Source: a virus (Duplodnaviria; Caudoviricetes). Taken from it: a stretch of DNA of 58,313 nucleotides. How positions within the stretch are numbered: position 1 is the stretch's first letter; each line of letters begins with the position of its first letter. Location: the IMG/VR virus record IMGVR_UViG_3300037264_003745, positions 1 to 58,313 of that record. One strand, written 5' to 3'. Of this stretch, positions 2,727-54,884 are shown piece by piece. A model generated the notes under the pieces. It was not told the origin of the DNA and did not search any database. It saw only the letters and a program-made list of their open reading frames with translations. Position numbers and translations under genes: made by a program.

Positions 2727-2734
2727 GATGCCCC

Positions 2735-8241: not shown

Positions 8242-10962
8242 GTGGCTCTCGACGAAAGTCGCTTCTTCCCGGCACAGAACGCGAGCGAGGCCGATCTCCT
8301 CCGCTTCCGCGACCGCATCATCAACCGCTGGTCGACGTACCGCAACCAGCACATGGGACGTATCGCCCTCTCCTTCTGGTACTACCTCGGCCGGCAGTGG
8401 GCGGAGCTCGATGCCGAAGCCGCGTTCGACGGTGTGCGAGGCTCGATCCTCCGGGACGTCGACACCTCCGATCTCCCTCGGCCCGTCACGAACGAAATCT
8501 CCCCCGCGATGGAAGAGGAGATGATCGCGCTCGTTGGCCGGAAGTGGATAGCGACCAACACCCCGACCTCCAACGACCCGCGGATCAAGGCCGCGGCGCA
8601 GGTGGCGAAGGATCAGCTCAACTACAGGCTCGAACAGCTACAGTGGCAGCGGAAGCGGCGTCAGACCGCGCTCCACTTCGCGGTCGGCGGCACGGGTCTC
8701 ATCTACAGCACATGGGATAAGTCGTACTTCAACCTCCGCACCGTCGGTGCCCCAAGCGCTGTCTACTGTGGCTCGTGCTCGCTCAAGCTCTACTCTCCCG
8801 ACATCCCCCTCGCGACCTTCACCGCCGGGCTCGAAGGGCGACCGTTCTCGCACGCAGAAGCCGCACGCGAGCTCCCCCTCGGAGAAGGTGAGGGCGTGGA
8901 GGACAAGGACGACGCCCGGATGATGCGGCTCTCGTACTGCCCCCGCTGCCAGGAGGCGCACGAGCTCAAGCGCTACGACGTACCCGAAGAAGAAGCCCGA
9001 GAGAGCGACGACATCCTCGGTCGTCCCCTCGGCATCCAGGAGCCGCGGGGCGGGACGGAGATCGAGATCGACATCCCATTCGAGTTCTACCCGCAGAACG
9101 CGGGTGCGCGCGTCTCTCCGTACGATCTCAAGCGTTGGGGCCGGCGCAAGATCCGCTCGCTCGAGTGGATCGAGGAGCGCTTCCCGCACCTCGTCCATCT
9201 CATCTCTCCCGATCCCCCATCCGAGCTTCTCTACGACGACCCGATGCTCGGCGAGTGGTCAGTCCTCGGAAGCTGGTCGCCCTCGCTCGACTCCGGCATC
9301 CTCGACAACCACGCCCTCGTCGACGAGATCGTGGACGAGCCCTCCTTCCGTCACCCGCGGGGAAGGTACGTCGTCGCCACGAAAGACCTCGTCCTCGAAG
9401 ACTCCCCGCTCCTCGAAGAGCAGTACGACGAGACCGAAGGCGAGAAGCTCTACGTCCCGCGCGTCCAGATGAGCATCTCGCGCTACAAGATTCGGCCGCT
9501 CGAGCTGTGGGGGACGAGCGGCCCTGACGAAGTCATCTCGCCGCAGAATCGCGAGAACGGTATCGACGCCCAGCTCATCGAAGCTCGGCTGCGGATGGGC
9601 GGACCCAACATGTTCATGCACCCGGACATGTGGGTCGACAACCCGATCCGAACGGATTCGAGCTACGGGCTCGGCAAAATCTTCTTCTTCAATCCGTCGC
9701 TCGCGAATCCGCAGTTCGCCAAGCCCGAGGTGTTCGGGGGCGAGCTCATGTCGGATTCGGTCTACATGGAGCGGGATCGTGTGCAGGCCGACATCAAGCG
9801 GATCATCGGGCCGAGTGACGCTTCCCGCGGAGTAGCCCCAAAGAACGTCGGAACCACCAGCGGTCTCCAGCTCCTCATCGAGGGCGACGAGCGGTCTCGA
9901 TCTCTACGTGAGGAGGAGTTCGTCTCGAGCGTCGAGCGTACGTGGTCGCACATTCTTCAGCTCGAGTGGATCCTCCGCGTCGACCCGGATGTCTACCGCG
10001 TCCTCGGCCCCGACAAGACATGGAAGTACGAGCAGTATCGAGGCGCGATGCTGCGGGGCCAGTACGAGATCAAGATCGAGCGCTCCGCATTCATCGGGAA
10101 GAGCGTCGTGAGACGGGAAGCGATGCGGGAGGCGATTGCGGATGGGCTCGTCGCGGTCGACACCCCCGTCGCCCGCCGACGCGCTCTCGAAGCCTACGGA
10201 ACCGAGTGCGATGTCTCGGTGAACGCGGACCAGCAGTACCAAGTCGATCAGGCCGACAGGCAGTGGGTCGACTTCTCCGACAAAGGACTCGTGCGGGTGC
10301 AGGACTCGATCGACGATCCTGGGATTCGCTACCTCGTCCTCGGCACCCATCTCCTCAGCGACGAGGGCCAACGCATCACGCTCGAGAACTCTTGGGACGA
10401 CAAGGCGAGGGCGATCGCCGGGTGGGAGGCCGAGCTCCAGCGCGCATCGGCTCTCGAGCAGTCCGTCATCGCGTTCTACGGGGGGCGGCTGGGGGCGGAA
10501 GAGGCCAAGGTCGCGTACGCCACGGCGATGGTGGCGTACGACGAACAGATGCAGCTCCACGAGAAGCAGCTCGAGACCACTCGTGAGGTGGCTGCCACAC
10601 CGATCCCCGGCGCTCCTCCGCCGCCCGAGCCGCCGGCTCCGAGCAAGCCCCCGCCGCCGATCTTCCTCCCCGCCCTCCTCCAGGACCGCATCCTCACCAT
10701 CTGGCAGGGGATGTTCGAGAAGGCGGGGATCGAGCTGAGCGGTGGTGTCACGGAGGGGATGGAGCGCGACCCGCTCATCTACGTCAAGTTCCGAGCGCTG
10801 GTCGAAGCCTATCGGATGTCCGGGGCTGGGGGGCCGGCAGCGATGCCCGCGCCCAACGGCCCGCCGGCCGCTCCCCCCGCTGCGACGGCTCCGGCAAACA
10901 CGGGCAAGGGCGGCAATACGCCGCCGCCGACTGCGCCGATGCCGGAGGGCGGGAAGCACTGA
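8242..10962 (+). CDS. Portal protein with a Zn-finger-like insertion and a Pro-rich tail
   Basis: Follows terL; WYYLGRQW, VTNEISP, GTSG..VISPQ..EN and TTSGLQLL motifs typical of podoviral portals; CGSC...CPRC insert. Confidence 0.85.
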   Translation: MALDESRFFPAQNASEADLLRFRDRIINRWSTYRNQHMGRIALSFWYYLGRQWAELDAEAAFDGVRGSILRDVDTSDLPRPVTNEISPAMEEEMIALVGRKWIATNTPTSNDPRIKAAAQVAKDQLNYRLEQLQWQRKRRQTALHFAVGGTGLIYSTWDKSYFNLRTVGAPSAVYCGSCSLKLYSPDIPLATFTAGLEGRPFSHAEAARELPLGEGEGVEDKDDARMMRLSYCPRCQEAHELKRYDVPEEEARESDDILGRPLGIQEPRGGTEIEIDIPFEFYPQNAGARVSPYDLKRWGRRKIRSLEWIEERFPHLVHLISPDPPSELLYDDPMLGEWSVLGSWSPSLDSGILDNHALVDEIVDEPSFRHPRGRYVVATKDLVLEDSPLLEEQYDETEGEKLYVPRVQMSISRYKIRPLELWGTSGPDEVISPQNRENGIDAQLIEARLRMGGPNMFMHPDMWVDNPIRTDSSYGLGKIFFFNPSLANPQFAKPEVFGGELMSDSVYMERDRVQADIKRIIGPSDASRGVAPKNVGTTSGLQLLIEGDERSRSLREEEFVSSVERTWSHILQLEWILRVDPDVYRVLGPDKTWKYEQYRGAMLRGQYEIKIERSAFIGKSVVRREAMREAIADGLVAVDTPVARRRALEAYGTECDVSVNADQQYQVDQADRQWVDFSDKGLVRVQDSIDDPGIRYLVLGTHLLSDEGQRITLENSWDDKARAIAGWEAELQRASALEQSVIAFYGGRLGAEEAKVAYATAMVAYDEQMQLHEKQLETTREVAATPIPGAPPPPEPPAPSKPPPPIFLPALLQDRILTIWQGMFEKAGIELSGGVTEGMERDPLIYVKFRALVEAYRMSGAGGPAAMPAPNGPPAAPPAATAPANTGKGGNTPPPTAPMPEGGKH

Positions 10963-11021
10963 ACATGGATGAGTGGATGACGGATGACGGACGACCGACG
11001 GACGAAAGAGAGGGTTGAGAA

Positions 11022-11393
11022 ATGAACAGGATCGACGCCCCCGGTGGTGCAGCAAAGGCAAGCTGGCGCGACAGGATCTTACACGCGTTAGGTAGTGTGA
11101 ACGGGATCGACGATGAGGAAGAAGCCTGGGGGAGGAGGATACGCCGCATCGACAACGAGGTGCAGTCTCGCCGCCCATGGGGGGAAATCGACAGGAAGGC
11201 GAAGGCGAAGGCCGCGGCCGGTGGGGAGTTCGACGATCTGCTCGCGAAGAACGAGGAAGCCGCTGCTGGGGGCGCGGACGCAGCGGATGCCGCGGGCGAC
11301 GCGGATGACTACGCCGCGCAGCTAGAGAGGGAGAGGGAGAGGCGCAGGAATCCCCCTCCCGCAGGCCCGCAGGCGGATGCACTGAAGAAGTAG
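11022..11393 (+). CDS. Hypothetical protein
   Basis: ATG with a GAGG-type RBS; in the head operon. Confidence 0.65.
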   Translation: MNRIDAPGGAAKASWRDRILHALGSVNGIDDEEEAWGRRIRRIDNEVQSRRPWGEIDRKAKAKAAAGGEFDDLLAKNEEAAAGGADAADAAGDADDYAAQLERERERRRNPPPAGPQADALKK

Positions 11394-11409
11394 GCAAAGG
11401 CAAATCACG

Positions 11410-11712
11410 ATGACAACGAAAACAACCTCTTCCGGTTACGTCGGTGACATGCGTCCGGCCGAGAGAGCGGATCAGCCTCCCCCCCGACTGGCTCGAACGC
11501 TTTCCGAGTGGCGGCTGTCGGTCAGCTTCATGCAGGGGGTGAGTGAGCTCATCCTCACCTTCACCACGCGCGAGGCCGCGCTCAAGTCCGCGCTCGCGAT
11601 CATCAGCCAGGGGTACGTGGAGCAGGACCGCCAGAAAGACCCCTCGATCTACGACACCGTGATCTACCCGATCCAGCAGGTTCGGACGATGTACGTCTTC
11701 GAGAAGAAGTGA
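11410..11712 (+). CDS. Hypothetical protein
   Basis: Typical codon usage, operon context. Confidence 0.7.
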   Translation: MTTKTTSSGYVGDMRPAERADQPPPRLARTLSEWRLSVSFMQGVSELILTFTTREAALKSALAIISQGYVEQDRQKDPSIYDTVIYPIQQVRTMYVFEKK

Positions 11713-11724
11713 ACGGGAGCTGAG

Positions 11725-11919
11725 ATGGCGAAGTGGATGGCGAGAGGTGAGGGCGGGGGCGAGGATGAGGGTGGGGAGAAGGCGAGGACGGTGGGGAAGA
11801 AGCTGCCCCCAGCGTTCCTGAAGCGCGGGAAGCGCATGAAGCGTGGCCGCGAGAAGGGCCGCGCCCACACGCAGGCTCGAGCGCTTCAGGCGCAGGCCGC
11901 GGAAGAGAACGAGATCTGA
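11725..11919 (+). CDS. Small basic protein
   Basis: GGGAG RBS; KKLPPAFLK motif. Confidence 0.65.
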   Translation: MAKWMARGEGGGEDEGGEKARTVGKKLPPAFLKRGKRMKRGREKGRAHTQARALQAQAAEENEI

Positions 11920-12173
11920 TGCCGAAGTACCTCCCCTGTCCAACCTGCCACTCGCACGCTCTCGCGACGAAGTCCGGCCTTCTCCACTCCGCCGGCCAGC
12001 TCTCCGCCCCTACGATCTCCTACATCTGCAAGCGCTGCGGCCGACCCACCACCCTCTCCGCCCCGGAGTTCGAGCTCCTCCCCGAGATGTCCTCCGCCGA
12101 GATCACCGCGGCCACTTGTGATCTCCCGTACTCCGCCCTGGACGTCCCGACCGCACAGCACGCCAAGTCATAG
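11919..12173 (+). CDS. Zn-ribbon protein
   Basis: CPTC...CKRC. Confidence 0.7.
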   Translation: MPKYLPCPTCHSHALATKSGLLHSAGQLSAPTISYICKRCGRPTTLSAPEFELLPEMSSAEITAATCDLPYSALDVPTAQHAKS

Positions 12174-12185
12174 CACCGTCGGAGC

Positions 12186-12215
12186 TTGACAACTCCACTC
12201 GTCCACTCCTACACT
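12186..12215 (+). promoter_or_regulatory. Sigma70-like promoter upstream of scaffold/capsid
   Basis: TTGACA-18 nt-TACACT. Confidence 0.6.
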
Positions 12216-12265
12216 CCACCTAGTATGAGTTCCACACGTTCACGCCAGCGAAGGGAGAACCCCTG

Positions 12266-13543
12266 ATGCCTGACGGTGATGTAGACGTCACGGTCGGAGG
12301 CGACGCAGCCTCCGACGTTGGTATCGACTCCAGTTTTCCTTCCACCTCCGGCACCGGGCGAACCCCGGCAACGGACGAGGGTGAAGGGGGCGGCGGCGAC
12401 CCCGATCTCGAACAGGTCGCCGAGGAGTTCGACGCCGAGGCACTGGCGGCATTGGGGGGTCAGCGCCCCAGGTCCGTCAGGGGAGAGGGTGCAGACGTCG
12501 ACGGTCGAAGGTCCACTTCCGACCCGATCGACGACTTCATCGAGAAGAACTACCAGGGTGATCGCGACGCATTCGTCCACTCGCTCTATTCGTCACGCGA
12601 GGAAATGAAGCGGATGCGATCGGAGATCGACGAGCTCAAGCACGGAGAAGCCAGCCATGCGCGAGCCCCGATCGCGACCCGCGACCGCGAAGCCGACTTC
12701 TCGTCGGCACGCGCGTCGAACCCGGAGCTCCAGGCCCTCGACCAGGAAATCAAGGTCATCGACAACGACGCGCAGGTGGCGACGAAAGAGCTTCACAGCA
12801 CCGCCGGACGGGCACAACAGGTGGCGAGCCGGGTCAAAGAGCTTCAAGGGCAGATGTCGAAATCCGAGCCCGAGGAGCGCGCCATTTTGCGTGCAGAGGT
12901 GGCAGAGCTCAACGCAGAGCTCTTCTCCCTCGATCAGGACTGGAAGAATGTCCAGTCCGAGCTCCGCCGGCTCAACATGGAGAAGCGTCGCACACAACGC
13001 GAGGTCATTCGTGCGGAGCAGTCCGTCCGCGAGTCGGTGGCCGACGAGGAGAAAGCCGGTAGAGAGCGCGCAGAGGTGATCACGACGACGCGTCAGCAGT
13101 TCGACTCGTCGCTCGCTTCTCACTTCAACACGATTGGGGTAGACCCGCAGTCCGAGCAGGGGCAATTCCTGCGTGAGACCTGCCGTACCAAGCTCCGCGA
13201 CTACTTCTCGTCGCTGGGTGATGGCTACGGGCTCGATGGTGCCGGCATCCACCGCGCGGTGGGGCAGATCCTAATCCGCGCTGTGAAGGCGTTCGGTCTC
13301 CGTCCGAGCCAATCATCCCGGAGGTCGTCCATCACTCCCCGCCCGATCATCACTCCACGCATGCCTGCACCGTTCGCTCGAACCGGGCCGCGTCCCTCCT
13401 CGTCCCAATCATCCCTTGATGGTGTGCTCGACAATCCGAACCTCAGTCCACGCGAGAAAGCAGCGTTCGTGCGAAAGCGCGCCGATGCGGTCTTCGCGGC
13501 TGGGGGCCGGGCCGTTGCTCGAGGTGGCCGCGGCCCGTCGTAG
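12266..13543 (+). CDS. Putative capsid scaffolding protein
   Basis: Acidic N-terminus, long coiled coil, immediately upstream of the major capsid gene. Confidence 0.6.
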   Translation: MPDGDVDVTVGGDAASDVGIDSSFPSTSGTGRTPATDEGEGGGGDPDLEQVAEEFDAEALAALGGQRPRSVRGEGADVDGRRSTSDPIDDFIEKNYQGDRDAFVHSLYSSREEMKRMRSEIDELKHGEASHARAPIATRDREADFSSARASNPELQALDQEIKVIDNDAQVATKELHSTAGRAQQVASRVKELQGQMSKSEPEERAILRAEVAELNAELFSLDQDWKNVQSELRRLNMEKRRTQREVIRAEQSVRESVADEEKAGRERAEVITTTRQQFDSSLASHFNTIGVDPQSEQGQFLRETCRTKLRDYFSSLGDGYGLDGAGIHRAVGQILIRAVKAFGLRPSQSSRRSSITPRPIITPRMPAPFARTGPRPSSSQSSLDGVLDNPNLSPREKAAFVRKRADAVFAAGGRAVARGGRGPS

Positions 13544-13582
13544 TCCGTGGTCGATCACACCAGCCTCCGCTAGGAGACTATC

Positions 13583-14875
13583 GTGCCTGGAGCAATCACA
13601 GACATCGCAAACAGCTTGAAGGTCGCCTACCCGTCCCGAGCCATCGAAACGATGGTGCAGGCCGAGCAGGTCTTCAGGCCCCGCCTCACCCGTGAGCTGC
13701 CGTCCGGTTCCAAGCTCACCGACGGGTACGAGATCCGGTTCGGAGCTCGCCTCTCGCCGTCTCAGAACGTCGGGCAGATCGCCGACATGGGATCCTTCCC
13801 GTACGCGAAGGACGCGATCGACCGGCAGTTCGTCTTCAAGCCGACGATCTTCGCCGCCGACTTCCAGATCGGCATCATGACGCGGTTCGTTGCCGCGTCG
13901 AACGTCGCCGGCTTCAACGGCGGCGAGATGCGGCGACGACCGGAAGAGGTCATGAACGACCTCGGCAAGTTCATCGAGTCGACCTACGTCGGCACGGACG
14001 GCTCCGGGATCCGCGGCTACGTCGAGTCCGACCCCGGTGCGAACCAGCTCAAGATGAAGCTGCCCCACGGCATCCGTCTGCTCCGCGAGAACTTCTACAT
14101 CTCGGAGCGCATCGCCGCCGGCAGCACCGTCCGTGACTCGCTCGACGGCCGCACCATCACGGACATGGCGTACGACACGCGGATCATCACCTACTCCGGG
14201 GCCGACCAGACGCCGGTCGCGGACGATCCCGTCTACGTCGTCTCCGAGACGACGCAGACCCTCACGACGCTCTTCGCGAACGGTCTCCGCGGCCAGATCG
14301 ACGACGGCACGCTCGCGCAGTACATCCACACGCTCGACCGCACCGCAGCCGGCAACACCAAGCTGAAGTCGCTCGTCTACAGCAACGGTGGTGAGCGCCG
14401 GAACCTGACCGAGCAGCTCATGATCGCCGCGAACCACGACATCTGGCAGCGCGTCAGCAAGCGGCCCTCGACGCTCTTCATGCCCGAGACGCAGGTGGAG
14501 AAGTACATCGAGTTCGTCGCTCCCGCGCGTCGCTTCCCCGCGGTGGGTCGCGAGCGTCAGGGCAAGTCGACCGGCTACGACGTCTCCGATCTGCACCACT
14601 TCGCACCGGGCGTCGACATGGACTTCATGATCTCCCCGGACGCTCTGCCCGGCGAAATCTACGGTCTCTCGTGGGATTCGTTCTTCCTCTACGAGGCAGT
14701 CCGTCTCCAGTGGCTCAGCGGCCACGACACCGCGAACCTCCTCCTCCTCCCCGGCACCGGCACGCACAAGGCCGGCTGGGGCGCGTACCTCGTCTCGATC
14801 GAGAACTTCGGCACGGACTTCCCGCTCGCTTCGTGGAAGATGACCGACCTGAAGGATCGGGCGCTCGGCGACTAG
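13583..14875 (+). CDS. Major capsid protein
   Basis: 430 aa, AGGAG RBS, strongly biased codons, YVGTDGSG and NGLRGQIDD motifs, position after the scaffold. Confidence 0.85.
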   Translation: MPGAITDIANSLKVAYPSRAIETMVQAEQVFRPRLTRELPSGSKLTDGYEIRFGARLSPSQNVGQIADMGSFPYAKDAIDRQFVFKPTIFAADFQIGIMTRFVAASNVAGFNGGEMRRRPEEVMNDLGKFIESTYVGTDGSGIRGYVESDPGANQLKMKLPHGIRLLRENFYISERIAAGSTVRDSLDGRTITDMAYDTRIITYSGADQTPVADDPVYVVSETTQTLTTLFANGLRGQIDDGTLAQYIHTLDRTAAGNTKLKSLVYSNGGERRNLTEQLMIAANHDIWQRVSKRPSTLFMPETQVEKYIEFVAPARRFPAVGRERQGKSTGYDVSDLHHFAPGVDMDFMISPDALPGEIYGLSWDSFFLYEAVRLQWLSGHDTANLLLLPGTGTHKAGWGAYLVSIENFGTDFPLASWKMTDLKDRALGD

Positions 14876-14913
14876 CGTTCGCTCGTTCACCTTCGTTCGC
14901 GTCCTCACCCGCA

Positions 14914-14948
14914 CCCCAGGGGGCTGATATCCTCCCAGCCCCCTGGGG
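14914..14948 (+). terminator. Perfect 13-bp stem-loop after the capsid gene (terminator, attenuator or stabiliser)
   Basis: CCCCAGGGGGCTG-9 nt-CAGCCCCCTGGGG; weak U-tract. Confidence 0.6.
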
Positions 14949-15050
14949 CTCTTACTCGGAGGCTGGAATGCAGAGTGCAGACCCGATCTGCTCTGACCGT
15001 CACCCTCCCGAGGGTGCCGGCAATCTCGACGCACAAGAGGAGATGAATCC

Positions 15051-15983
15051 ATGACCAACTTCAATCCCGCGGGTGGGGCGATCCCGCACGAACGTGTGTA
15101 CGCGCACCAGCTCAGCGAGGGCGTGCGGAAGGGGAAGTACTGCATCATCGAGCGGATCTCCACCCACCCTCTCATCCTCGAGCACGGGACGCAGACCACA
15201 CCCGTCGTCGTCCCCACGCTCCCCACGGCCGCGCAGGATGGCCTCAGCACCATCTACTTCCGGGAGGGGCTCGGTGAGGCCGTCCTCGAGATGTTCCAGA
15301 CGACCGCACAGACCCTCGTGCCCTCGCGTCACGCGACGAAGGGCATCCTGATCGGCTGCGACGTCGTCAACAACGAGTCGGTCGAGTTCGTCCCCGGCGG
15401 CAACCACGCCGCGAACCCGCTCGGCTGTCTCGCCGGCACCGATCCGGGCGTCTTCATCCGCGCCACGTTCGAGTTCGCGGACACCAGCGGCACCGACCAG
15501 TTCGTCGTCGGCTTCCGCAAGCAGGCAGCCTACGCCGTGCCGACCTCCTTCCTCACGACGGGCGACGCTCTTTACACCGACTACTTCGGCATCGGGTTCA
15601 GCGGCACCGCGGCCTCGAACCTCGTGAAGACCGCATCCGACCTCAACGACGCCGGGTCGGCCGTCGTCACCTCCACGGGCTTCGCCTGGGCGGACGGTCT
15701 CATCCACACGCTCGAAGTCCGCGTCAAGGGTCGCCGCGTCACCTGTGCGATCAACGGTGTCGTGCTCGGCAGCTCGGTGAAGAAGGACGGGCTCGGTGCC
15801 GCGATCACCGCGCAGTCGACTCTCACGACTCCGGTCTTCTCGTTCGATGCCGGCGACTTCCTGATCCCCTTCATCTTCCACCGCTACGACGCCACGACAC
15901 CGGGTGCGGTCTACCTCCGCAAGCTGGTCGTCGGGCAGCTTCTCGAGGACGGGCTCGATCCGTCCGGGAAGGGACCGCAGTAG
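15051..15983 (+). CDS. Structural protein (minor capsid/decoration-like, beta-rich)
   Basis: GAGGAG RBS, capsid-like codon bias, follows the capsid gene. Confidence 0.7.
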   Translation: MTNFNPAGGAIPHERVYAHQLSEGVRKGKYCIIERISTHPLILEHGTQTTPVVVPTLPTAAQDGLSTIYFREGLGEAVLEMFQTTAQTLVPSRHATKGILIGCDVVNNESVEFVPGGNHAANPLGCLAGTDPGVFIRATFEFADTSGTDQFVVGFRKQAAYAVPTSFLTTGDALYTDYFGIGFSGTAASNLVKTASDLNDAGSAVVTSTGFAWADGLIHTLEVRVKGRRVTCAINGVVLGSSVKKDGLGAAITAQSTLTTPVFSFDAGDFLIPFIFHRYDATTPGAVYLRKLVVGQLLEDGLDPSGKGPQ

Positions 15984-15987
15984 CTCG

Positions 15988-16719
15988 ATGGACTGGCTCC
16001 AGGAGGGTCGACGCCGGGCGAACTCGCGCATGCAGTCGATGGTCGACTCTGCGCCGACCCTCTCCGTTCCCATCCGCGACACCGCGGAATCCGCTCCCGG
16101 CTGGCGCTACCTCGGCGAGACCTACTCCTGCATCCCCGACGCCGTCTACCCGTGGGATCCGGCGGTCGTTCGCGCCATCCGTGAGTTCTGCTCGGACGCG
16201 GTCCCCATCTCCATCCGCTCCGTCTGGAAGTCCTCTCGCCTCGATGGCGAACCCCGAACGATGGTCATCGTCCGTCACGGTCTCGCGCGCTCCATCCGCG
16301 ATCCGATCGCCCCGATTCACCACTTCGACTGCATCATGCCGTCGACTCCGGTTTCGGGCGGCGTGCGACTCCCGAAGCCCAACTACATCGAGCTCAACTG
16401 GTACGACAAGGAGGTCCGCCCGTGGGGGTACGATCTGCCCGGTGCGTACCTCCCGTTCGATTGGGAGCTCCATGCGTGCCTCCGTCGTGCGTACGTCGAC
16501 TCCCTCTCTCCAACCGAGCTGGTCGACTATCTCGTCTCGCCATACAACGCGAGGCAGAAGATCCGAACGAAGCAGAAGAAGGATGAGGAAGCGTACGTCA
16601 ACAACGACGTGCAGACCTATGCTGCGAAGAAGATCGCAGGCATGTCGGATGTCGAGCTGAAGGAAGCGGTGCTGGGAGAACCCCCGCCACCCGAATCCAG
16701 TCCAAGAGGAGATCACTAA
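15988..16719 (+). CDS. Hypothetical protein in the virion module
   Basis: ATG at 15988 just after the upstream stop. Confidence 0.7.
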   Translation: MDWLQEGRRRANSRMQSMVDSAPTLSVPIRDTAESAPGWRYLGETYSCIPDAVYPWDPAVVRAIREFCSDAVPISIRSVWKSSRLDGEPRTMVIVRHGLARSIRDPIAPIHHFDCIMPSTPVSGGVRLPKPNYIELNWYDKEVRPWGYDLPGAYLPFDWELHACLRRAYVDSLSPTELVDYLVSPYNARQKIRTKQKKDEEAYVNNDVQTYAAKKIAGMSDVELKEAVLGEPPPPESSPRGDH

Positions 16720-16722
16720 GCC

Positions 16723-17595
16723 ATGTCGTCTCAGCCCAACATCGCACCGCAGATCGTCTCGTTCGTCGCGCCTCGCCGCTCGTACGTCCTTCACAACGCG
16801 AAGCCGAAGCGCGTCGAGGTGATGTACGTCGGGAACCTGATGACGCTTCCCGCCATCGACGAGGTCCACGCCATCAAGGCCGATACGGACGCGGACGGCG
16901 ATCCCATCCCCGGCACGTACGTTCTCGAGGACCAGTACATCTTCATCCCCGACATCGGAGACGAGGTGCTGATCTTCGACTGCGCGAAGGCCATTGCCCA
17001 CATCCTTGGTCTGAAGCGGGGATCGGACGGCAAGCTCACCGAGGCCACGGGCCACTTCGCGGTTGGGGGTGTCAGTCTCCTCCCGCGCCACTCCACGAAG
17101 GAGCAGTGGCAGGGAGTGGCGGCGACGGGTGAGCAGCGGGCGTGGATGACGCGTGTGCGGGTGGCGCAGCAGCTCATCCAGGACGTGGATGAGAAGAATG
17201 CTCGGCGGAAGTCCGCGGGGATGGACGCGGTCCACGGTGGCCCGGAGTGGGACGCGGCGCGCGCGCTCATCACCGAGTACAACGCCGTCATGCAGCAGGA
17301 TGCGCGGAAGGTACTCTCGATCTCTCCGGTCGCCTCGGAGAAGCTCGACGACGACATCGAGATCACGGCGATTGCGCGGGCGAAGGCGATGGAGCTCGCG
17401 ACCACGGTGTCGGAGGGCAAGAAGATCGACGCTCAGCAGCTCTTCAACGAGCTGATGGACGATCCGAAGATCCGGCAGTGGGCACAGAAGGAGTGGAGGT
17501 TCCGTCGTCGCGGCCACGAGCCGATCAAGGACGCGGAACTCGTCGCCGCTGCGGAGCTCGGCGTGCCGGTCAGCGCGGTAGGTCTGGAGAAGTAG
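16723..17595 (+). CDS. Hypothetical protein in the virion module
   Basis: GAGGAG RBS, 290 aa. Confidence 0.75.
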   Translation: MSSQPNIAPQIVSFVAPRRSYVLHNAKPKRVEVMYVGNLMTLPAIDEVHAIKADTDADGDPIPGTYVLEDQYIFIPDIGDEVLIFDCAKAIAHILGLKRGSDGKLTEATGHFAVGGVSLLPRHSTKEQWQGVAATGEQRAWMTRVRVAQQLIQDVDEKNARRKSAGMDAVHGGPEWDAARALITEYNAVMQQDARKVLSISPVASEKLDDDIEITAIARAKAMELATTVSEGKKIDAQQLFNELMDDPKIRQWAQKEWRFRRRGHEPIKDAELVAAAELGVPVSAVGLEK

Positions 17596-27255: not shown

Positions 27256-30200
27256 GTGAGCAGCTCCATCACGCATCTCGAGCGTCTCCGAAGACTCCGG
27301 CTCCTCCGTGATCAGGCTGATGATTCGAGGGACAGCGAGTTCGCGCCGCTCGACGCCATCGTCAACCCCGTCGACGATCCCAGGCTGAGCCCGGACTTCG
27401 CAGCCGCGATCCGCTCCGAGCCCGAGCCCGAGCCCGAGCCCGACAGCCCTGGCGCTCTCCGCACCGGCTGGTCCTACGCCACGTCGCCCATCCGCGCCCT
27501 GATGGGCTACACCGGCACGATCCTTCCCCAGGTCATACGCCAGTTCGACCCCGAGGCATACGGGCGTGCCGCGGAGGAGCTCAAGCAGCGGGAGAAGATC
27601 GGCCCGGAGTTCGCGCGGGGGGCTGAGGAGCTGCCGGCGACCGGCGACGTGCTGGCGCAGTACGTCCCGGATGAGGCGAGGGAGAGTCTTCTCGGCCGGA
27701 CAGTCGGCCCGGTCGCGCGCCTCGGCGCGAACATCCTCGGTGATCCGACCTCCTATATCGGTTGGGGTCTGCTCCCGAGGCTCGCCGCGGCGGGGAGAGC
27801 AGGTCGGGCGCTCGAGGGGCTCGAAGCGCTGGGGAGAGTCGGGGCGGTGAAGGAAGCTGCGAGGGCCGCTCTCGCATCCTCCACGATGGCGGGCCATCTC
27901 CGCGGCGTAGGCAAGCTCGGCCTCTCCCTCCCCATCTCCCCGTTCGCAGGGCTCGCCTACGCACCGGAGCTCGTCGAGGGTGTCGCTGGGCAGGCGAAGG
28001 AGTCGGTCGAGGCGGTGGAGGCAGGGAGGTACGAGGAAGCAGCGTCGAGCGGAGTCGGCGCGATGCTGATGGGCGGGCTCGGAGTGCTCGTCACGCGTGG
28101 TGTCATCTCCGAGTCACGGGCGGTGGACGTCGCCAAGCGGGCGGTAGACGAGCAGCTCGGGCTGACGGCGAAGGCGAAGGCGGAGGCGGATGCGAGGACG
28201 TCCGGCGGGGGAGGCGCGGAAGGCGGAATGGTCTCCCCGCGACAGCAGATTGAAGGGCTGAGGCAGGAGCCGCAGCCGACGGACGTCGAGGGCTTCGAGG
28301 GTGTCGAGGGCGAGGGATTTGCCGAGGCCCCGGCGGGGATGGCAGCCCCCACCGCCCCCACCGCCCCCACTGTCCGCGCCGAGGCCCCGCCGCAGGCCAC
28401 TCAGACCGCTCCGATCGCTCCGATCGTAGGTCCGGTCGCGGCTCCCCCGGACGTCCCCGTGCCCCTGCCGACCCTGCCGGAGGCGCTCGAGCAGCTCCTA
28501 CAGGACAAGGCGAAGTCCGGTGCCCTCCTCACCTCCTCAGAAGTTGAGTCTCTCGGACTCATATCAAAGACGAAGCGGAAGACTGCCGAGGAGAAGCTGA
28601 AGAAGCTCGGGGTGTGGGACAGGCTGGAGTACGTCCCTGGTCTTGGGTACAAGGTGAAGGCCGGGGGGCAGCCGGCTCCGCCCGTCTCCCCCACAGCCGC
28701 GCCCGACGCGCCCGACGCACCCGTCGACGCTGCCGTGCCGCGCGACACCGCCGCTCCCTCTGCGCGACCGCCGGCCGCACCCGCCCCGGCCGCTGATGGA
28801 GTCCGTCCCTCCTGGTTCCAGGAGGTTCGAGACGCTGACGCTGAGCCTGCCGAGTCCGTCTCCGCCCCCGTCTCCGCCCCCGCTCCCGCTCCCGCTCCCG
28901 CTCCCGCTCCCGCCCCCGCCGTCATCACCCGCGCCGAGATCCGCCGTCAGCTCGCCGACCCCGCTCTCCGCGCCCAGGCCGACGACGCTCTCCGCACCAT
29001 CTCCAGCGAGACCGGCGTCCCTCTCCATCTCCTCACCCCCGTTCACGTCCAGGCGGTCTTCCCAGGCGACGCCAACTCCGCCACCCGAGCCGTGCTCAAC
29101 CAGCTCGTCAGCCCCGGTCGCGAGGCTCGAGGCACGCGGCCTCCTCCGCCCGAACCCTCCGCCCCCTCCGCCTCTCTCACGCTCGACGCACTCGCCGCAC
29201 GCCAGCACGAGCCCGGAGCGCGCGCGCGCATGGAGGAGATCGCCGCCGCACCGGATCGGCCGGAAGCCGCGGCGATCGAGCCCACCCCCATCCCCCGCGC
29301 CATCCGCACGCCGGCCGAGCTCACAACCGCCCGAGCCGAGCTCCTCGAGATCCGAGACTTCGTCGCATCCGACCCCGAGCGCTGGGGACCGGCGCTCGCC
29401 GATCGCGACATCGAGCTCACGACCGCAGTCGAAGACGCCCTCCGCCGCGGTGTCGGTCCTCCGATGCCGGAGTTGCGGCGGGCGGAGAGGATGGAGGAGC
29501 TGAAGCCCGAGCCGCCCGAGCCGCGGGAGATGATCTACGAGAGCCTCCCGGCCGGGCGTCCGCGCGTCCCCGCGCCCGGTGCCGAGCGCCTGGAGCGATT
29601 GGCGCTCGCGCGGCCCGCACCCACACCCTTGACCGCCGAAGAGACCGCACGCGCCTCCGACCTGCATGAGGCGACGAGGCAGAAGTGGGCGCGGGACATG
29701 CGGGAGGGGCGGAGAAGCACCCCCGCCCCCACATCGCCAGTCACGAGAGGTCCGGTCGCGGTCGAAGCCGATATCGCAGCGGGGACCGGGCCGCTCGAGT
29801 GGATGCGAGCGTTCCTCGTCGACGAGCCAGCTACGAGCCGCATCATGCAGAAGGGGACCACGAATGGCGTTACCAGCAAAGCTGCCTACCTCGCTCCCCC
29901 TGTCTACCGCTACCAGAAGGCAGCCTTCCGCGCCGGGGCCGAGCTTTTCCTGGGCAAGTCCCGCGGCTTGGACCCAGGCCAAGGTGTGAGGCTCGCCGAC
30001 CCAACCGTCACAGTGGCTGAGCTCCACTTGGTGATGTCCGCGGCCGAGCGCAACCCCGAGATGTTTGGCGGTCGACCCCGCAACATCCGTGAGCTCGATC
30101 CGAAGCAGATGGCGGTTGCGGCTCCGCGCCTCGTCGGCACGACACGGCCGGAAGAGATCGAGATGGCAGACTGGAGCAAGGGGGGATTCCTCTACGATTC

Positions 30201-33200
30201 TCGCTCCCCCGCCGGACGCATCCAGCGACAGATCCGCAGGACCGACACCTACAGGGGACTGCCCGGAGCCGAGCAGCTTCTACAGGATAAGCTGACAGAC
30301 TGGCTCGAAGGTCTCGGTCGAGACGACGCTCTCCACCGCGCCTCCGGCGAGGCTCGCGCCGAGGTCGCGTCGCGGAAGGGTGAAGCGAAAGCAGCCGCGC
30401 TCGATGCCGCGGGAAAGACCGAAGAAGCCGCGGCCCTCCGCCAGAAGACGCTGACGGATGTCGACGCCATCTTCAGACGCGCCGAGGCCAGTGAGAAAAA
30501 CGCGCAGAATATCCGCCGTCTCCTCCTCGAGGAGCCCCCTCCGAAGCCGGTGGAGATCGAGAAACTTCTCCGCAAACATCTCGGCGACCGCTTCAAGGAC
30601 TTCCTCAAGGTCAAGGCTCCGGGCGGCAAGAACACATCGTTCATAGATGACGTGATCGCGAACGGGGAGGCCGCACGTCTCGACAAGAGCCTGCACGGCC
30701 GCAGCGCTGTCTCCGACGAGGGAGTCCTCCGTGTCGCCGCGCTGGACGCGGGGCAGCACGCTCTCATCGAGCCTGCCGCCGCATCCGTCGAACCCGCCAA
30801 ACCCGCTCCCCGCCCGGTCCCGCGTTATGCTGTCGACATCCCCACCCGCCCCGAGGGTCTCTCCACAGCCGATTGGACGCGCCACGTCACCTCCGACAGT
30901 GGTCGCGATCTTCTCCACCGCATCCTTGGCTCCGTCTCGCGTCTGCGCTGGGAGGCGGAGGCCAGCAAGGGGCAGCTCAACTCCCAGCACATCATCGACC
31001 TTCGCCGGATCGCATCGGACCTCGGCATCTCGGAAGGTAACAAGAAGAGCGCGAGCAAGATCGCTGACGGGATCGCCAACAAGCTCGAGCGCGAGCTTCC
31101 CTCGCCCTCCGCCTCCGCTTTCCTCACCGACGAGCTCGTCGCCGAACGAGGCTCGGTGTGGAGACAGGCCGTAGAGCGCTCCTCGGTCGATCCCACCACC
31201 AACGCTCGAGTCGTGGACTTCGAGGGCGACGCCGCGGATCTCGTCCAGCCCCTCCACTCCGTCCTCAGCTCGGACTACGTCGCCGCTGTCTCCCGCGTCA
31301 TCTCCGACGCAGCTCGCCTCACCAAGCTCCCCTCGAGCCTCGGCGGCTTCATGTCGTCCCCGGCGCTCGAGGGCGTCCGTCTCGATGACGGCGTCTACAT
31401 CAACTCTCTTCACAGCCGTCACCGGGCGCTCTCCGAAGTGCCTGCCGGGCTCGAGGGAGAAGCACGCGCGGATGCGCTCAACTACCTCACAGCCCGTTCC
31501 ACCGTCGATCTCATCCTCCACGAGATCACGCACAAGTCTCTCAACCTCGCTCGTCACGTCGCAGAGACCGCTGACGTAGCGTTCTCACGCGCGTACTCGG
31601 ACGTCATACGCACGGTGTCGCCGATCTACGGCGACCTCGTCCGCCGCGTGCAGGACACACTCTCGCCGCTCTCTGCCCAGCTCGATGAGGTGTACCCGTC
31701 CTATCGCACTGCGTTCGAGCGTTACAAGGAAGGAGCTGAACGTGTCAAGTCCGGTCCCGGTCCCGGTCCCGTCTCCGCCGTCTCCGTCCCCACAGGATCT
31801 CGTGCTCGGACAGATCAAGCAGTCCATCCGCCCGGTCAACCCGGATCCACGGGAGATCGAGCAGGCGCTTCTCATGGCGTTCCGCCTGGGGTACGACCCA
31901 TCCGACCTATACCTCCGGGCGATCCAGGCGCGGCCGCAGGAGTTCGATCCGGCACCGGGGATAGGGGAGGTGCTGACGCCGGAGGTGCTGGAGTACCTGA
32001 GCACCTGGGACGAGAGGTCGAACGCGGGCGAGTAGCATCTCCCTCAGCCGCCGCTACGCTCACGGATTCGAGCGTCACCCTCGGATCGGCCAAGCACGCG
32101 CAGGAAGTCGAAGACCACTTCGCACGCTTCTTCGCCTCCGAAACCGCACGCTACTCCGGCCACCCAGAGGCCGCGGATCGCTACCTCAAACAGCTCGAGG
32201 CCGTCCGCGCTCTCCCGCCCGACGTGCAGGCCCGGATGAAAGCGGCCGGCCCCCGACGCCCATTCGACATCGGCTACAACGTCACCAAGATCCACCCCGA
32301 CGCCATGTCGGACGAGCAGCGGATGGTGGTGGCGATGGCGGTCAAGATGCGGGAGGCCATCCAGAGGGTCGGAGGTGATCCCGCCTCCCGAGCCGTCCCC
32401 TACACGCGCGAGCGCTTGCGCGAGGACATGAAGGTCGTCCTCGGCACTCACACGCCGGAGGAGTTCGTCGACATGGCGGCGGTGGCGAGGACGATCCAGA
32501 CCCCTGCTGATCTCGCGCTCCTCAAGACGGTCGCCGTGACGTTCTCGGCCAAGGTGGACGAGTACCGAACGCGACTCGTGGCTGCGGAGAGAGACCTCGC
32601 TACAGCCAAGAAGTCCGGCGACACGGTCGCGGAGAGCGAAGCCCGCTCGAACGTCACGGTGACGAACGATCTGCTCGCTCAAGCCGTCCTCCGCAGTGAA
32701 CACGCGATCTTCACGCTTCTCCCGCACACCACGCGCGTCGCACGGATGCTGCAAGCTCTCAACCAGACGTTCGCACCGCTCACCGCTGAAGAGACTTTCC
32801 GCTCTCGATTCATGGGAGCGCTGTCGAACTCCCATGTCAAGAAGCCGAAGGCCGAAGAGTTCTACGAGATGTTCATGGATCAGCGGAAGCTCGGACCGGC
32901 CGCGAATTGGTCTGAGTTCATCACCGCATTCCGAAAGGCGACCAAGCCGAGCTACTTCAACCGCTTCATCGAGTTCTGGAAGGCCGGTCTCCTCGGCATC
33001 CCAACGCAGATCGTCAACGTCACTAGCACCGGTGGATTCCTCGCACTCCGCAACCTCGAGCACGCTGTCTCTATTCCCGCGAACATCGCCTTCACCAGTC
33101 TGCGGGGGCGCTCCCAGGAGCGCTTCATCAGCGAGGCCGCAGCTCGCATGAAGTCGACGCGGATGGGACTGCGAGAGGCGTGGGACGGGCTCAAGCTGGA

Positions 33201-34767
33201 TATCGGGGATATCGCCAACCTCCGACCACCCGATCTCGGGCGACGCCTCGAGATGGGGTCGTTCTATGACGAGCCCAACCTCCGACAGCTCTTCGGCGCT
33301 ATCGGTGGAAAGACTGGGGAGTTCGTGCGCATCCCCTTCAAGTTCCTCGACGCCTTCGACAACTTCTACAAGCACATCATTCGGAATCAGGAGTGGGCGG
33401 CGAGAGCGAACCGGATGGCGCACGATGTCGAACGCCGCTCTCCTGGCGAGGCCGTCTCTCATGCATCCGACCGCATCTACGACGAGCTCCGCCGCCTCGC
33501 ATCGGACCCGTTCTCGCACTTCGAGCTGTGGAAGAAGCCCGGCTATCGAGAGGCGATCGAAGGGGGTCGGAACGCTTCCACCTCCGACACGTTCCAGGAG
33601 GCTCTCGTCGGGAACTCGGTGCGGAGAGCCATGGGTAACTTCCGCGATGGTGTGCAGGCTCATCCAGCGCTCGAGCTCCTCTTCCCCTTCTGGAAGACAC
33701 CTTTCAACATCCTCGCCGAGGGGATGAAGCGCACGCCGATCGCGGTGGCCTGGGCGCTCCGCAAGTATGCGAAGGGCGAGCCCGGATTCGACGACCCGGC
33801 ATTCATCGAGGCCATGGTGAAGTCCGGTCTCGGCAGCATCTTCATGCTGTCCGCGGCTGGTCTCGCCCTCCAAGGCGGGTTGACCGGTGGCGGACCTGCC
33901 GATCCAAAGCAAGCCCAGCTCCTCAAGAACACGGGTTGGCAGCCGCGGTCATTCAAGATCGGCGACCAGTACATCTCCTATCAGCGCCTCGCTCCCTTCT
34001 CGATCCTGATCGGGATGGCGGCGGACATCGCCGAAGCCTGGGAGCGCAAGGACATCGACACGGGGGCGGAGCTCATCCAGAAAGGCGTCGCGTCGTTCTC
34101 GGACAACGTCATGGATCAGACGTTCGTCACCGGACTCAGCGCGCTCACGAAGATCCTGACGGACCCGCAGCGCGAGGGTCTGTCCGCCATCCGCGGTCTC
34201 CAGGCGTCGCTCATCCCGAACATCGTCGGCGTCGTGCCGGTCGGCCATCTCGCCCGCGCGATTGATCCGATCTACCGCGAAACCGAGGCGTTCACGACCA
34301 GCCCGATGCAAGCGCAGGTGCCGTTCCTCTCGAAGCTCCTCCCGCCGCAGCTCGAGCCGACCGGAGAGCAGCGAGAACGCAAGGGCACACCGGTTGAGCG
34401 TCTCCTCTTGCCGTTCACACGCTCGACCGTCCAGACCGGGCCGATCGCCGACGCTGCGACGGAGATCGTGCGGCTCGGGAAGTCGCTCGAACCCACGCCG
34501 CGCTTCTTCCGTGTCGGCGAGGAGCGCATCTACTACTCGGAGAGTGAGCGCGAGCAGATCGCGAATGCGGTGACGCGGGGAGTGCGTGAAGTGGCCCGGC
34601 TCACTCGGAAGTCCTCCTATCGTGCGCTGCCGGACGCCGATTCTCCCGAGGATCCAGGCGCGCGCACGAAGTACGACGCCATCCTCGCCATCCTCAATCA
34701 CTACCGCGCACCTGTCACGGCGAGAGCGCGAAGAGCGGCGGAGCGGCGTTGGAGAGCGGAGAGATGA
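27256..34767 (+). CDS. Giant internal virion/DNA-ejection (polyvalent-type) protein, 2503 aa
   Basis: Size and position; LILHEITH (HExxH); C-terminal LFPFWKTPFNI and GWQPRSFKIGDQYISYQRLAPF motifs seen in large podoviral internal proteins. Confidence 0.8.
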   Translation: MSSSITHLERLRRLRLLRDQADDSRDSEFAPLDAIVNPVDDPRLSPDFAAAIRSEPEPEPEPDSPGALRTGWSYATSPIRALMGYTGTILPQVIRQFDPEAYGRAAEELKQREKIGPEFARGAEELPATGDVLAQYVPDEARESLLGRTVGPVARLGANILGDPTSYIGWGLLPRLAAAGRAGRALEGLEALGRVGAVKEAARAALASSTMAGHLRGVGKLGLSLPISPFAGLAYAPELVEGVAGQAKESVEAVEAGRYEEAASSGVGAMLMGGLGVLVTRGVISESRAVDVAKRAVDEQLGLTAKAKAEADARTSGGGGAEGGMVSPRQQIEGLRQEPQPTDVEGFEGVEGEGFAEAPAGMAAPTAPTAPTVRAEAPPQATQTAPIAPIVGPVAAPPDVPVPLPTLPEALEQLLQDKAKSGALLTSSEVESLGLISKTKRKTAEEKLKKLGVWDRLEYVPGLGYKVKAGGQPAPPVSPTAAPDAPDAPVDAAVPRDTAAPSARPPAAPAPAADGVRPSWFQEVRDADAEPAESVSAPVSAPAPAPAPAPAPAPAVITRAEIRRQLADPALRAQADDALRTISSETGVPLHLLTPVHVQAVFPGDANSATRAVLNQLVSPGREARGTRPPPPEPSAPSASLTLDALAARQHEPGARARMEEIAAAPDRPEAAAIEPTPIPRAIRTPAELTTARAELLEIRDFVASDPERWGPALADRDIELTTAVEDALRRGVGPPMPELRRAERMEELKPEPPEPREMIYESLPAGRPRVPAPGAERLERLALARPAPTPLTAEETARASDLHEATRQKWARDMREGRRSTPAPTSPVTRGPVAVEADIAAGTGPLEWMRAFLVDEPATSRIMQKGTTNGVTSKAAYLAPPVYRYQKAAFRAGAELFLGKSRGLDPGQGVRLADPTVTVAELHLVMSAAERNPEMFGGRPRNIRELDPKQMAVAAPRLVGTTRPEEIEMADWSKGGFLYDSRSPAGRIQRQIRRTDTYRGLPGAEQLLQDKLTDWLEGLGRDDALHRASGEARAEVASRKGEAKAAALDAAGKTEEAAALRQKTLTDVDAIFRRAEASEKNAQNIRRLLLEEPPPKPVEIEKLLRKHLGDRFKDFLKVKAPGGKNTSFIDDVIANGEAARLDKSLHGRSAVSDEGVLRVAALDAGQHALIEPAAASVEPAKPAPRPVPRYAVDIPTRPEGLSTADWTRHVTSDSGRDLLHRILGSVSRLRWEAEASKGQLNSQHIIDLRRIASDLGISEGNKKSASKIADGIANKLERELPSPSASAFLTDELVAERGSVWRQAVERSSVDPTTNARVVDFEGDAADLVQPLHSVLSSDYVAAVSRVISDAARLTKLPSSLGGFMSSPALEGVRLDDGVYINSLHSRHRALSEVPAGLEGEARADALNYLTARSTVDLILHEITHKSLNLARHVAETADVAFSRAYSDVIRTVSPIYGDLVRRVQDTLSPLSAQLDEVYPSYRTAFERYKEGAERVKSGPGPGPVSAVSVPTGSRARTDQAVHPPGQPGSTGDRAGASHGVPPGVRPIRPIPPGDPGAAAGVRSGTGDRGGADAGGAGVPEHLGREVERGRVASPSAAATLTDSSVTLGSAKHAQEVEDHFARFFASETARYSGHPEAADRYLKQLEAVRALPPDVQARMKAAGPRRPFDIGYNVTKIHPDAMSDEQRMVVAMAVKMREAIQRVGGDPASRAVPYTRERLREDMKVVLGTHTPEEFVDMAAVARTIQTPADLALLKTVAVTFSAKVDEYRTRLVAAERDLATAKKSGDTVAESEARSNVTVTNDLLAQAVLRSEHAIFTLLPHTTRVARMLQALNQTFAPLTAEETFRSRFMGALSNSHVKKPKAEEFYEMFMDQRKLGPAANWSEFITAFRKATKPSYFNRFIEFWKAGLLGIPTQIVNVTSTGGFLALRNLEHAVSIPANIAFTSLRGRSQERFISEAAARMKSTRMGLREAWDGLKLDIGDIANLRPPDLGRRLEMGSFYDEPNLRQLFGAIGGKTGEFVRIPFKFLDAFDNFYKHIIRNQEWAARANRMAHDVERRSPGEAVSHASDRIYDELRRLASDPFSHFELWKKPGYREAIEGGRNASTSDTFQEALVGNSVRRAMGNFRDGVQAHPALELLFPFWKTPFNILAEGMKRTPIAVAWALRKYAKGEPGFDDPAFIEAMVKSGLGSIFMLSAAGLALQGGLTGGGPADPKQAQLLKNTGWQPRSFKIGDQYISYQRLAPFSILIGMAADIAEAWERKDIDTGAELIQKGVASFSDNVMDQTFVTGLSALTKILTDPQREGLSAIRGLQASLIPNIVGVVPVGHLARAIDPIYRETEAFTTSPMQAQVPFLSKLLPPQLEPTGEQRERKGTPVERLLLPFTRSTVQTGPIADAATEIVRLGKSLEPTPRFFRVGEERIYYSESEREQIANAVTRGVREVARLTRKSSYRALPDADSPEDPGARTKYDAILAILNHYRAPVTARARRAAERRWRAER
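31742..32035 (+). CDS. Probable overprinted 97-aa gene in the +1 frame inside the giant virion gene
   Basis: AAGGAAGGAG RBS 6 nt before GTG at 31742; about 85% GC3 in this frame by hand count, while the host frame turns into a low-complexity linker. Confidence 0.65.
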   Translation: MSSPVPVPVPSPPSPSPQDLVLGQIKQSIRPVNPDPREIEQALLMAFRLGYDPSDLYLRAIQARPQEFDPAPGIGEVLTPEVLEYLSTWDERSNAGE

Positions 34768-54112: not shown

Positions 54113-54113
54113 C

Positions 54114-54350
54114 TCACTCCTCCTCCTCCTCATCCTCATCCTCATCGTCGCCCTCGTCCTCACCCAACGCACACGCCTGACAGATCGCCACCGCATCCGC
54201 ATCGTCCGCCACGAAGCTCTCGCCACAGATGTCACACTGAGGCTCGAAGTCCGGGAGCTTCGCGAACGGGACGTGGTCGATCAGCCGCACCTTCTCCTCA
54301 GGCTCGAGATCGTCCAGCATCGCGTCGTACTGCTGTTTCGGTGTCGTCAT
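54114..54350 (-). CDS. Small Zn-finger protein with an acidic tail
   Basis: CDIC...CQAC. Confidence 0.65.
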   Translation of the reverse strand: MTTPKQQYDAMLDDLEPEEKVRLIDHVPFAKLPDFEPQCDICGESFVADDADAVAICQACALGEDEGDDEDEDEEEEE

Positions 54351-54883: not shown

Positions 54884-54884
54884 C

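Follow-up and report, generated by a model that had tools for sequence, protein, structure and literature searches.

To our knowledge, well-supported genes that lie fully embedded and out of frame within another gene are few among tailed double-stranded DNA (dsDNA) phages, with Rz1 inside Rz of phage lambda as the textbook case. Rz1 occupies the +1 frame of Rz over a linker that is described as mutationally silent, and the two products form one complex (PMC5295617). Viral overprinted genes pair two reading frames of which one encodes a disordered or otherwise odd product, with an asymmetry of codon usage between them (Sabath et al. 2012, PMC3494269; Pavesi 2021, PMC8227390); the cases on record come mostly from small RNA or single-stranded DNA viruses. 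In giant injected 'polyvalent' phage proteins, zincin-like peptidase domains are reported to be the commonest module, and a role in autoprocessing of the polypeptide has been proposed for them (Iyer et al. 2017, PMC5512222). Here we describe a new protein family in an Rz1-like embedded layout within the gene of a giant ejected virion protein, an arrangement that is conserved across a clade of uncultured phages. It lies in the IMG/VR virus record IMGVR_UViG_3300037264_003745, which has 65.4% G+C, carries direct terminal repeats and looks complete, and whose whole stretch of 58,313 bp is referred to below as the window. Bases 31742-32035 of the window are very probably a real protein-coding gene nested in the giant virion gene at 27256-34767.

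The closest precedent for this layout is shared in several respects and departed from in others. As in lambda, a small gene with its own start lies wholly inside a larger gene on the same strand, in the +1 frame and over a flexible linker that tolerates change; constraint does not bear on both frames at the same codons, and the layout is conserved in a phage family (PMC5295617). As expected of an embedded out-of-frame pair, the nested gene is wholly contained in its host, has its own predicted start signals and is conserved under purifying selection. However, the host here is a 2503-residue virion protein, whereas Rz is a membrane i-spanin, and the small protein of the window, unlike Rz1, has no signal sequence or lipobox. 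An o-spanin identity was considered for the 97-residue product and rejected, given the lack of Cys and of a hydrophobic N-terminus and an isoelectric point (pI) of 4.37. The interaction of the two products is known for Rz and Rz1 and conjectured for the window, and we found no sequence or fold relation between the two systems. Compared with overprinted viral genes, the asymmetry is placed differently: the folded, conserved and compositionally normal product is that of the short nested gene, the odd and disordered one is a segment of the long gene, and the genome is that of a 58-kb dsDNA phage. We found no nested gene described in the literature on the genes of internal virion or polyvalent proteins, within the parts of those sources that were covered.

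Composition and start signals of the nested open reading frame

The host gene runs on the plus strand from 27256 to 34767 as a single unbroken frame of 2503 codons, according to the open reading frame (ORF) list and its translation, and no host-frame stop occurs within it. Wholly enclosed by this gene and on the same strand, the nested ORF begins with GTG at 31742-31744 and ends with TAG at 32033-32035, giving 97 codons plus the stop in the +1 frame of the host. Upstream of it stands the Shine-Dalgarno-like element AAGGAAGGAG at 31726-31735 (plus strand), with a GGAG core at 31732-31735 and a 6-nt spacer (31736-31741) before the GTG. A preliminary description of this DNA had recognized the element and its spacing, and only its first base, given there as 31727, needs correction to 31726. 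As a background figure, GGAG followed after 4-7 nt by ATG or GTG occurs at 0.5-1.15 per kb in three giant genes. An alternative start at ATG 31685, which would yield a product of 116 aa, was rejected; no ribosome site precedes it, and the relatives have only 15-25 residues ahead of their conserved core. Three tandem GGTCCC units at 31753-31770 are translated as (Gly-Pro)3 by the host frame and as an N-terminal (Pro-Val)n stretch by the small gene.

Long open stretches in the +1 frame are common in the host gene, the longest measuring 281, 191, 172, 162 and 151 codons from stop to stop, so ORF length alone is no proof and the signal lies in composition and homology. Fifteen of the 97 nested codons end in A or T, exactly as first counted by hand, which corresponds to a G+C content at third codon positions (GC3) of 0.85. 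The host frame had been said to lose its codon bias over the same bases, and 53 of its 98 codons there do end in A or T. It had also been called a Gly/Pro/Arg/Ala (G/P/R/A) linker, and these four residues make up 60% of the host frame over the nested stretch, as against 39% of the whole host protein. This host-frame spacer, at 31741-32034 on the plus strand, comprises approximately 98 residues (1496-1593) that separate the HExxH domain of the giant protein from its C-terminal part, and the same 294 bases that encode the small protein would thereby be read in the host frame as a disordered segment. At host codon positions 1, 2 and 3, the G+C fractions are about 0.84, 0.74 and 0.44 in 31786-31995, compared to 0.70, 0.52 and 0.80 gene-wide, and the altered stretch, which extends over approximately 31730-32080, is the normal pattern displaced by one base.

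A sliding-window computation of GC3 along the giant gene, which had been proposed as a check, confined the frame switch to the nested region. GC3 fell below 0.6 in 101 of 2454 host-gene windows of 150 nt, all 101 of which start within 31669-31969, and the lowest value outside 31600-32100 was 0.64. In addition, codon-usage log-odds trained on the remainder of the host gene came to 0.364 per codon in the small frame, as against 0.007 in the host frame over the same bases; elsewhere in the host gene, in-frame windows never fell below 0.308 and +1-frame windows never exceeded 0.355. The small gene's frame looks, from codon usage, to be the primary one and the giant gene's spacer the secondary reading. 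The earlier designation of the gene as overprinted therefore holds for the +1 overlap itself, but its direction may be reversed.

We scanned 31300-32300 for transcription signals and obtained no sigma-70-like promoter and no intrinsic terminator, so internal initiation on the mRNA of the giant gene is the simplest reading. A single late mRNA would most likely serve both the giant protein and the small one, the latter being initiated separately from its own Shine-Dalgarno site and GTG.

A protein family and its nesting in related phages

An exhaustive phmmer search of 1.84 billion cluster representatives returned 18 relatives of the small protein at E <= 0.001, six of them at E <= 1e-10, the best with E 2.7e-21 and 55% identity. 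Seventeen of the 18 measure 84-122 aa and one measures 361 aa; none is a giant protein that carries the domain in frame. In the family alignment, about 58 columns form a conserved core, in which L-G, R-P, G, Y, A, R-P and V-L positions hardly vary, and the family hidden Markov model (HMM) matches the window's nested protein at E 2.7e-31. Database relatives start with Met and have short variable N-termini, three of them sharing their first residues. Proline is abundant in roughly the first 20 residues of the small protein, a segment that varies across the family. The forecast of a small, helical and acidic protein was borne out in each respect: an AlphaFold2 model of the 97-residue product, made from a 19-sequence alignment, has five helices with a mean predicted local distance difference test score (pLDDT) of 86.3 and a predicted template modelling score of 0.67, and together with the low pI of the window's protein, 15 of 18 proteins (the window's and 17 relatives) have a pI of at most 5.4. 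The product would be an acidic five-helix protein of approximately 10 kDa.

Judged by sequence, the small protein belongs to a real family that is without any name. No Pfam or PHROGs family matched the window's protein; when all 19 family members were compared, no more than two matched any one family in these collections, always below the cut-offs, and none matched an annotated PHROGs family. The sole match in a sequence search of the PDB was a designed repeat protein, and Foldseek comparison of the model with the PDB and BFVD gave nothing at E <= 0.001. The best VIA Z for the model was 6.9, in the noise range for helical proteins, and the ESM Atlas offered no usable match for the small protein. 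Among 50,697 cultured-phage records, no match was obtained by blastn of 31000-32800 or by tblastn of the 116-aa +1 ORF.

Annotation pipelines forbid fully embedded genes by design. It had been anticipated that standard gene callers would miss the gene, and the family does surface in databases on short fragments alone: all 13 members that were looked up sit on contigs of 620-1800 bp. This is suggestive of gene callers that overlook the small gene unless the giant ORF is too broken up to take precedence.

We located three related loci by means of the host C-terminal domain, and not by means of the small gene, and in two of these three a family member lies in the +1 frame of a giant ORF. L002 is a 6.7-kb contig on which the giant ORF occupies 2-3742, open at its 5' end, with a +1 ORF that starts at ATG 753 and stops at 1082. 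L003 is from a 67.8-kb viral contig, with a giant frame of 2601 codons at 9722-17524 and a +1 ORF that starts at ATG 14523 and stops at 14828. The family HMM matches the two products at E 4.8e-30 and E 1.1e-26, respectively, the L003 sequence being absent from the HMM. The third locus, L004 (a 3398-codon ORF, 29% identity), has neither the HExxH domain nor the nested gene. Relatives with +1 stops or without a ribosome-binding site had been named as the outcome that would speak against a gene; instead, both L002 and L003 keep an open +1 ORF, a start and a GGAG-type site. The start is GGAG, 5 nt and ATG in L002, and GAGGAGG, 4 nt and ATG in L003, where a +1-frame TGA stands 9 nt before the ATG. 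Thus a start codon (GTG or ATG) with a GGAG-type site 4-6 nt upstream is found in all three loci for which the nested gene is seen in DNA, the window included.

The compositional signature recurs in these loci as well. Over the nested stretch, G+C at host positions 1, 2 and 3 is 0.92, 0.74 and 0.30 in L002 and 0.94, 0.74 and 0.44 in L003. Codon log-odds are 0.37 for the small frame and -0.128 for the host frame in L002 (in-frame minimum 0.40), and 0.44 and 0.016 in L003 (minimum 0.27), and in the window, L002 and L003 alike the host-frame values over the nested stretch fall below all in-frame windows elsewhere. The small proteins of the three loci share 27-40% amino-acid identity in pairwise comparison, and in all three comparisons the least-changed codon position is position 2 of the small gene, which is position 3 of the host, the opposite of what is expected under host-frame selection. 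The suggestion that the nested gene is under selection is upheld by the codon-position switch, the 18 relatives and the recurrence of the nested arrangement in L002 and L003. Selection on the amino-acid sequence would act mainly on the small gene's frame, with the host frame kept at least open.

Scans of viral contigs using the small protein, the C-terminal part, and the alignments A1, A2, A4, A5 and P0046 returned no relative; among the alignments tried, only A6 recovered L003 and L004. A scan of genome contigs with alignment A4 returned nothing. A spacer rich in Gly, Ala and Arg is also present in L002 and in the giant homologue P0002. The TGA of the small gene in L002 (region 1077-1090) overlaps the host codons for Ser-Leu-Thr, part of an 'ASLT' motif that is conserved after the spacer in most homologues, and in the window and L003 the nested gene ends with TAG a few codons from the stop site of L002. 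The end of the nested gene seems to be fixed relative to a domain boundary of the host.

We then considered the host frame across the small gene. When the codons of the small protein were replaced synonymously using host codon usage, the host frame was open in 13% of resamplings for the window, 19% for L002 and 1.2% for L003. The actual host frame is open in all three loci, and in all three the flanks share one frame. Given an open frame in every case despite these low rates, and flanks that are in frame, the giant protein is meant as one continuous chain, with the G/P/R/A spacer being either what translation across the small gene costs or what it serves to produce. Both frames look selected, judging from these sequences, the host frame at least for staying open.

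To extend the comparison to hosts represented by protein sequence, we computed for each host protein the residues that its +1 frame could encode and scored the best case against a family-core profile built without the rows of the window and L002. The search for giant homologues was restricted to proteins of 1376-4381 aa. The positive controls, the window and L002, had their maxima (152.9 and 152.3) at the true site. Altogether 28 of 70 giant proteins, the window's included, scored 140-183 at one site, located 913-1305 residues from the C-terminus, while the remaining 42 scored at most 119. The +2 frame never scored above 80. Within the 28 positives, the second-best site scored no higher than 118, and every one of them beat all 100 shuffles of its own spacer, for which the top score was 128. 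When database small proteins were matched exactly to the retrieved hosts, none was 100% compatible besides the window's own control; the best pair was P0016 on the spacer of P0044, at 84% of 111 positions. Across the 28 proteins, the consensus shows unusual conservation in the spacer, which can be read as an imprint of the +1 gene.

The HExxH domain and the giant host protein

Directly upstream of the nested gene, the host protein contains an HExxH domain at 31321-31728 on the plus strand (residues 1356-1491), with the motif at residues 1422-1426 (bases 31519-31533). The motif had been placed about 70 codons upstream of the nested gene, close to the measured distance of 74. H1422, E1423 and H1426 are invariant in 28 aligned homologues. 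An HMM of the domain matches all 28 hosts with a nested-gene signal, always ending just upstream of that signal, and matches 4 of the 47 other homologues more weakly. In three of these four (P0056, P0061 and P0070), the best +1 score, although below the threshold, falls directly after the HExxH domain, and the module of HExxH domain and nested gene is spaced differently from the C-terminus. From the sequences compared, domain and nested gene therefore appear to travel together, and the pair would have been co-inherited through a clade of environmental phages.

The domain itself matched no Pfam family at E <= 1 when three domain sequences were used, and no PDB sequence at E <= 10. Its AlphaFold2 model has a pLDDT of 58.5 and shows the order of elements of a zincin core (an N-terminal helix, a three-stranded sheet and two C-terminal helices) with low confidence; in this low-confidence model the motif falls in a predicted helix at 67-101 of the domain. 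The homologue P0002 has an extra segment of approximately 110 residues after the spacer (residues 1480-1600 or so), which contains a second HExxH-like motif, is not present in the window's protein and gives a weak second match of the HExxH-domain HMM (E 0.015).

Downstream of the spacer, a conserved C-terminal core at 33328-34293 on the plus strand (residues 2025-2346) matches the PHROGs profile phrog_6651, 'internal virion protein', at E 3.6e-31. In tblastn searches, the C-terminal part matched 24 phage records at 21-33% identity, many of them annotated as 'internal virion protein (D)'; the matched internal virion protein D genes come from Pelagibacter, Synechococcus, Roseobacter and other T7-like phages, marine podophages included. 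By profile and by annotated members, the C-terminal part belongs with the T7 gp16-like internal virion proteins D. In the C-terminal domain, the window's protein is 33-62% identical to the 27 homologues with a nested-gene signal. The spacer would accordingly connect a zincin-like HExxH domain to a T7 gp16-like C-terminal part.

Distant giant homologues that share the C-terminal domain carry varied Pfam domains in precomputed annotation (PF18760, PF00990, PF13872, PF00271, PF00176, PF18798 and PF18812, found across P0038, P0054, P0058, P0060-P0063, P0065, P0071, P0076, P0086, P0087, P0091 and P0093). By their names these are assorted enzymatic domains, and their variety fits the picture of a polyvalent injected protein. 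The resemblance to polyvalent and T7 gp16-type proteins consists in the C-terminal phrog_6651 match, the invariant HExxH motif and the assorted domains of distant homologues. In contrast to the zincin-like domains of polyvalent proteins, the HExxH domain here has no counterpart among Pfam models or PDB sequences, and the account of polyvalent proteins, in the portions consulted, mentions no nested gene (PMC5512222).

Two further observations concern composition in the window. In the N-terminal third of the host protein (window 27256-29000), residues 350-560 or so form long Pro/Ala-rich low-complexity runs, including a (Pro-Ala) repeat, and these runs retain a normal host-frame GC3, unlike the spacer of the nested gene. 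Just one further region of the window, 54050-55828, has a long coding-looking ORF (54699-55811) whose GC3 signal passes to a different frame; it shows a flagged low-GC3 stretch at 55113-55310, several coding-phase changes and two long overlapping same-strand ORFs at 54050-55828 and 54702-55814. Either normal adjacent genes accompanied by a spurious long ORF or a second overlap could account for this region.

Alternative explanations, origin and candidate roles

Four other explanations of the +1 frame were weighed, all of which we regard as very improbable. The +1 frame could form a C-terminal extension of the N-terminal 1495 residues, reached by programmed +1 ribosomal frameshifting as in other phage genes with two products. 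Internal Shine-Dalgarno-like elements can stimulate +1 shifts, as in prfB, and such an element, a strong one, lies just upstream of the nested start; the window's +1 frame is moreover open already from 31580. However, the start codon with its closely spaced GGAG-type site recurs in every locus seen in DNA, the database relatives begin with Met after short variable N-termini, and the junction has neither a host-frame stop nor an obvious slippery run. The +1-frame TGA of L003, so close to the ATG, leaves hardly any room for a shift; the small protein would have to be started anew, and a frameshift fusion is very unlikely. Slightly less probable still is a non-functional relic, for instance an old frame of the domain that was disabled by two compensating frameshifts and whose composition has not yet decayed. 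Open +1 stretches of up to 281 codons in a 65% GC gene would fit such a relic, as would P0002, a relative in which, unlike in the window, an additional domain follows the spacer. Yet three DNA loci at 27-40% identity have all kept the ORF with its start, ribosome site and core motifs, the nesting is deduced also across hosts whose C-terminal domains are only 33-62% identical, the codon usage of the small frame is at in-frame level, and the phmmer search brought up no giant protein with the domain in frame.

We judge it just as improbable as a relic that three separate genes (HExxH, small and gp16-like) stand in a row and that the host frame is open across the small gene by chance. A real gene in high-GC DNA often leaves the frame one base upstream of it open, and the resampling rates for the window and L002 allow for this. 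In L003, however, that rate is merely 1.2%, the flanks share a frame in all three loci, all 28 relatives at the protein level are continuous, and no clear split form turned up in a limited search; the host frame from 27256 to 34767 has no stop, hence ribosomes must read through. The least probable explanation is an assembly artefact in which two indels produced a false frame switch. The record is a metagenome assembly, but the Logan contigs, an independent assembly of the one run that holds the sequence, are identical over 31300-32340 with no differences and no gaps, although the reads are perhaps shared, and the architecture recurs in two unrelated assemblies, L002 and L003. The identical second assembly and these two loci together rule out an artefact for practical purposes.

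With regard to the origin of a nested gene that is real, the spacer may have arisen by fusion of virion genes across an older small gene, or the small gene may have been born inside the spacer, and we consider the two about equally likely. Among the routes to overlap that have been listed is the disappearance of the stop codon that separates two adjacent genes (PMC2268670), and old overprinted genes are reported to be able to match the codon usage of their genome and to be under stronger selection than the frame they overlap (PMC3494269).

Several points weigh against our interpretation of the locus or narrow it. As the latter source implies, the codon usage seen here is compatible with either frame being the older (cf. 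PMC3494269). A search for split or shorter host forms gave five hits, three on contigs of less than 4 kb and two distant, with no clear unfused relative, and it scored the top 7999 word-sharing candidates only, so that a free-standing small gene could be missed. The compatibility score is an upper bound derived from protein sequence, and for 26 of the 28 hosts the nesting is deduced rather than seen in DNA. The short contigs of the 13 family members show no wider context; they are compatible with nesting but do not demonstrate it. Plain co-inheritance could explain why the HExxH domain and the nested gene occur together, and no family or fold match backs a function for the small protein. Finally, the phage is uncultured, and the sequencing runs listed as containing the sequence comprise one DNA run, which may be the source sample, and no RNA run.

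The small protein could be a partner of the giant protein, working on or with the adjacent HExxH domain, either as an assembly chaperone or as a regulator of proteolytic processing. This is a tentative proposal, which we rate well short of even, and it is put forward because of the strict adjacency to the HExxH domain and the precedent of Rz and Rz1. A chaperone, or an inhibitor of an adjacent domain such as the HExxH one, had been suggested before, and the support for these candidate roles is likewise that adjacency and that analogy. The nested layout would guarantee that the small protein is co-inherited and co-expressed with the giant protein. Complex prediction for the small protein with the two flanking host segments, run on the window sequences alone and with no alignments, gave a score of 0.00, which speaks neither for nor against an interaction. 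In T7, gp13 and other small assembly factors are encoded beside the internal-core genes and are needed for correct incorporation. If the small protein is a chaperone, T7 gp13 would be its functional analogue; gene 13 differs in being free-standing, and none of the 19 family members has PHROGs similarity to it. A more elaborate proposal, which we consider unlikely, is that the HExxH domain and the nested gene form a portable two-frame module, in which the small protein would regulate the metallopeptidase as a catch or guide and so time the cutting of the giant protein, possibly within the spacer, the spacer itself having arisen by gene fusion across an older small gene.

Taken together, our results provide a concrete case in which the disordered spacer of a giant injected protein and a small partner gene share the same DNA. 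As the family is otherwise visible in databases on short fragments alone, scanning giant phage genes for composition phase may be a way to recover hidden proteins. If the small protein does regulate the adjacent HExxH domain, it would offer a handle on the processing of giant ejected and polyvalent proteins.

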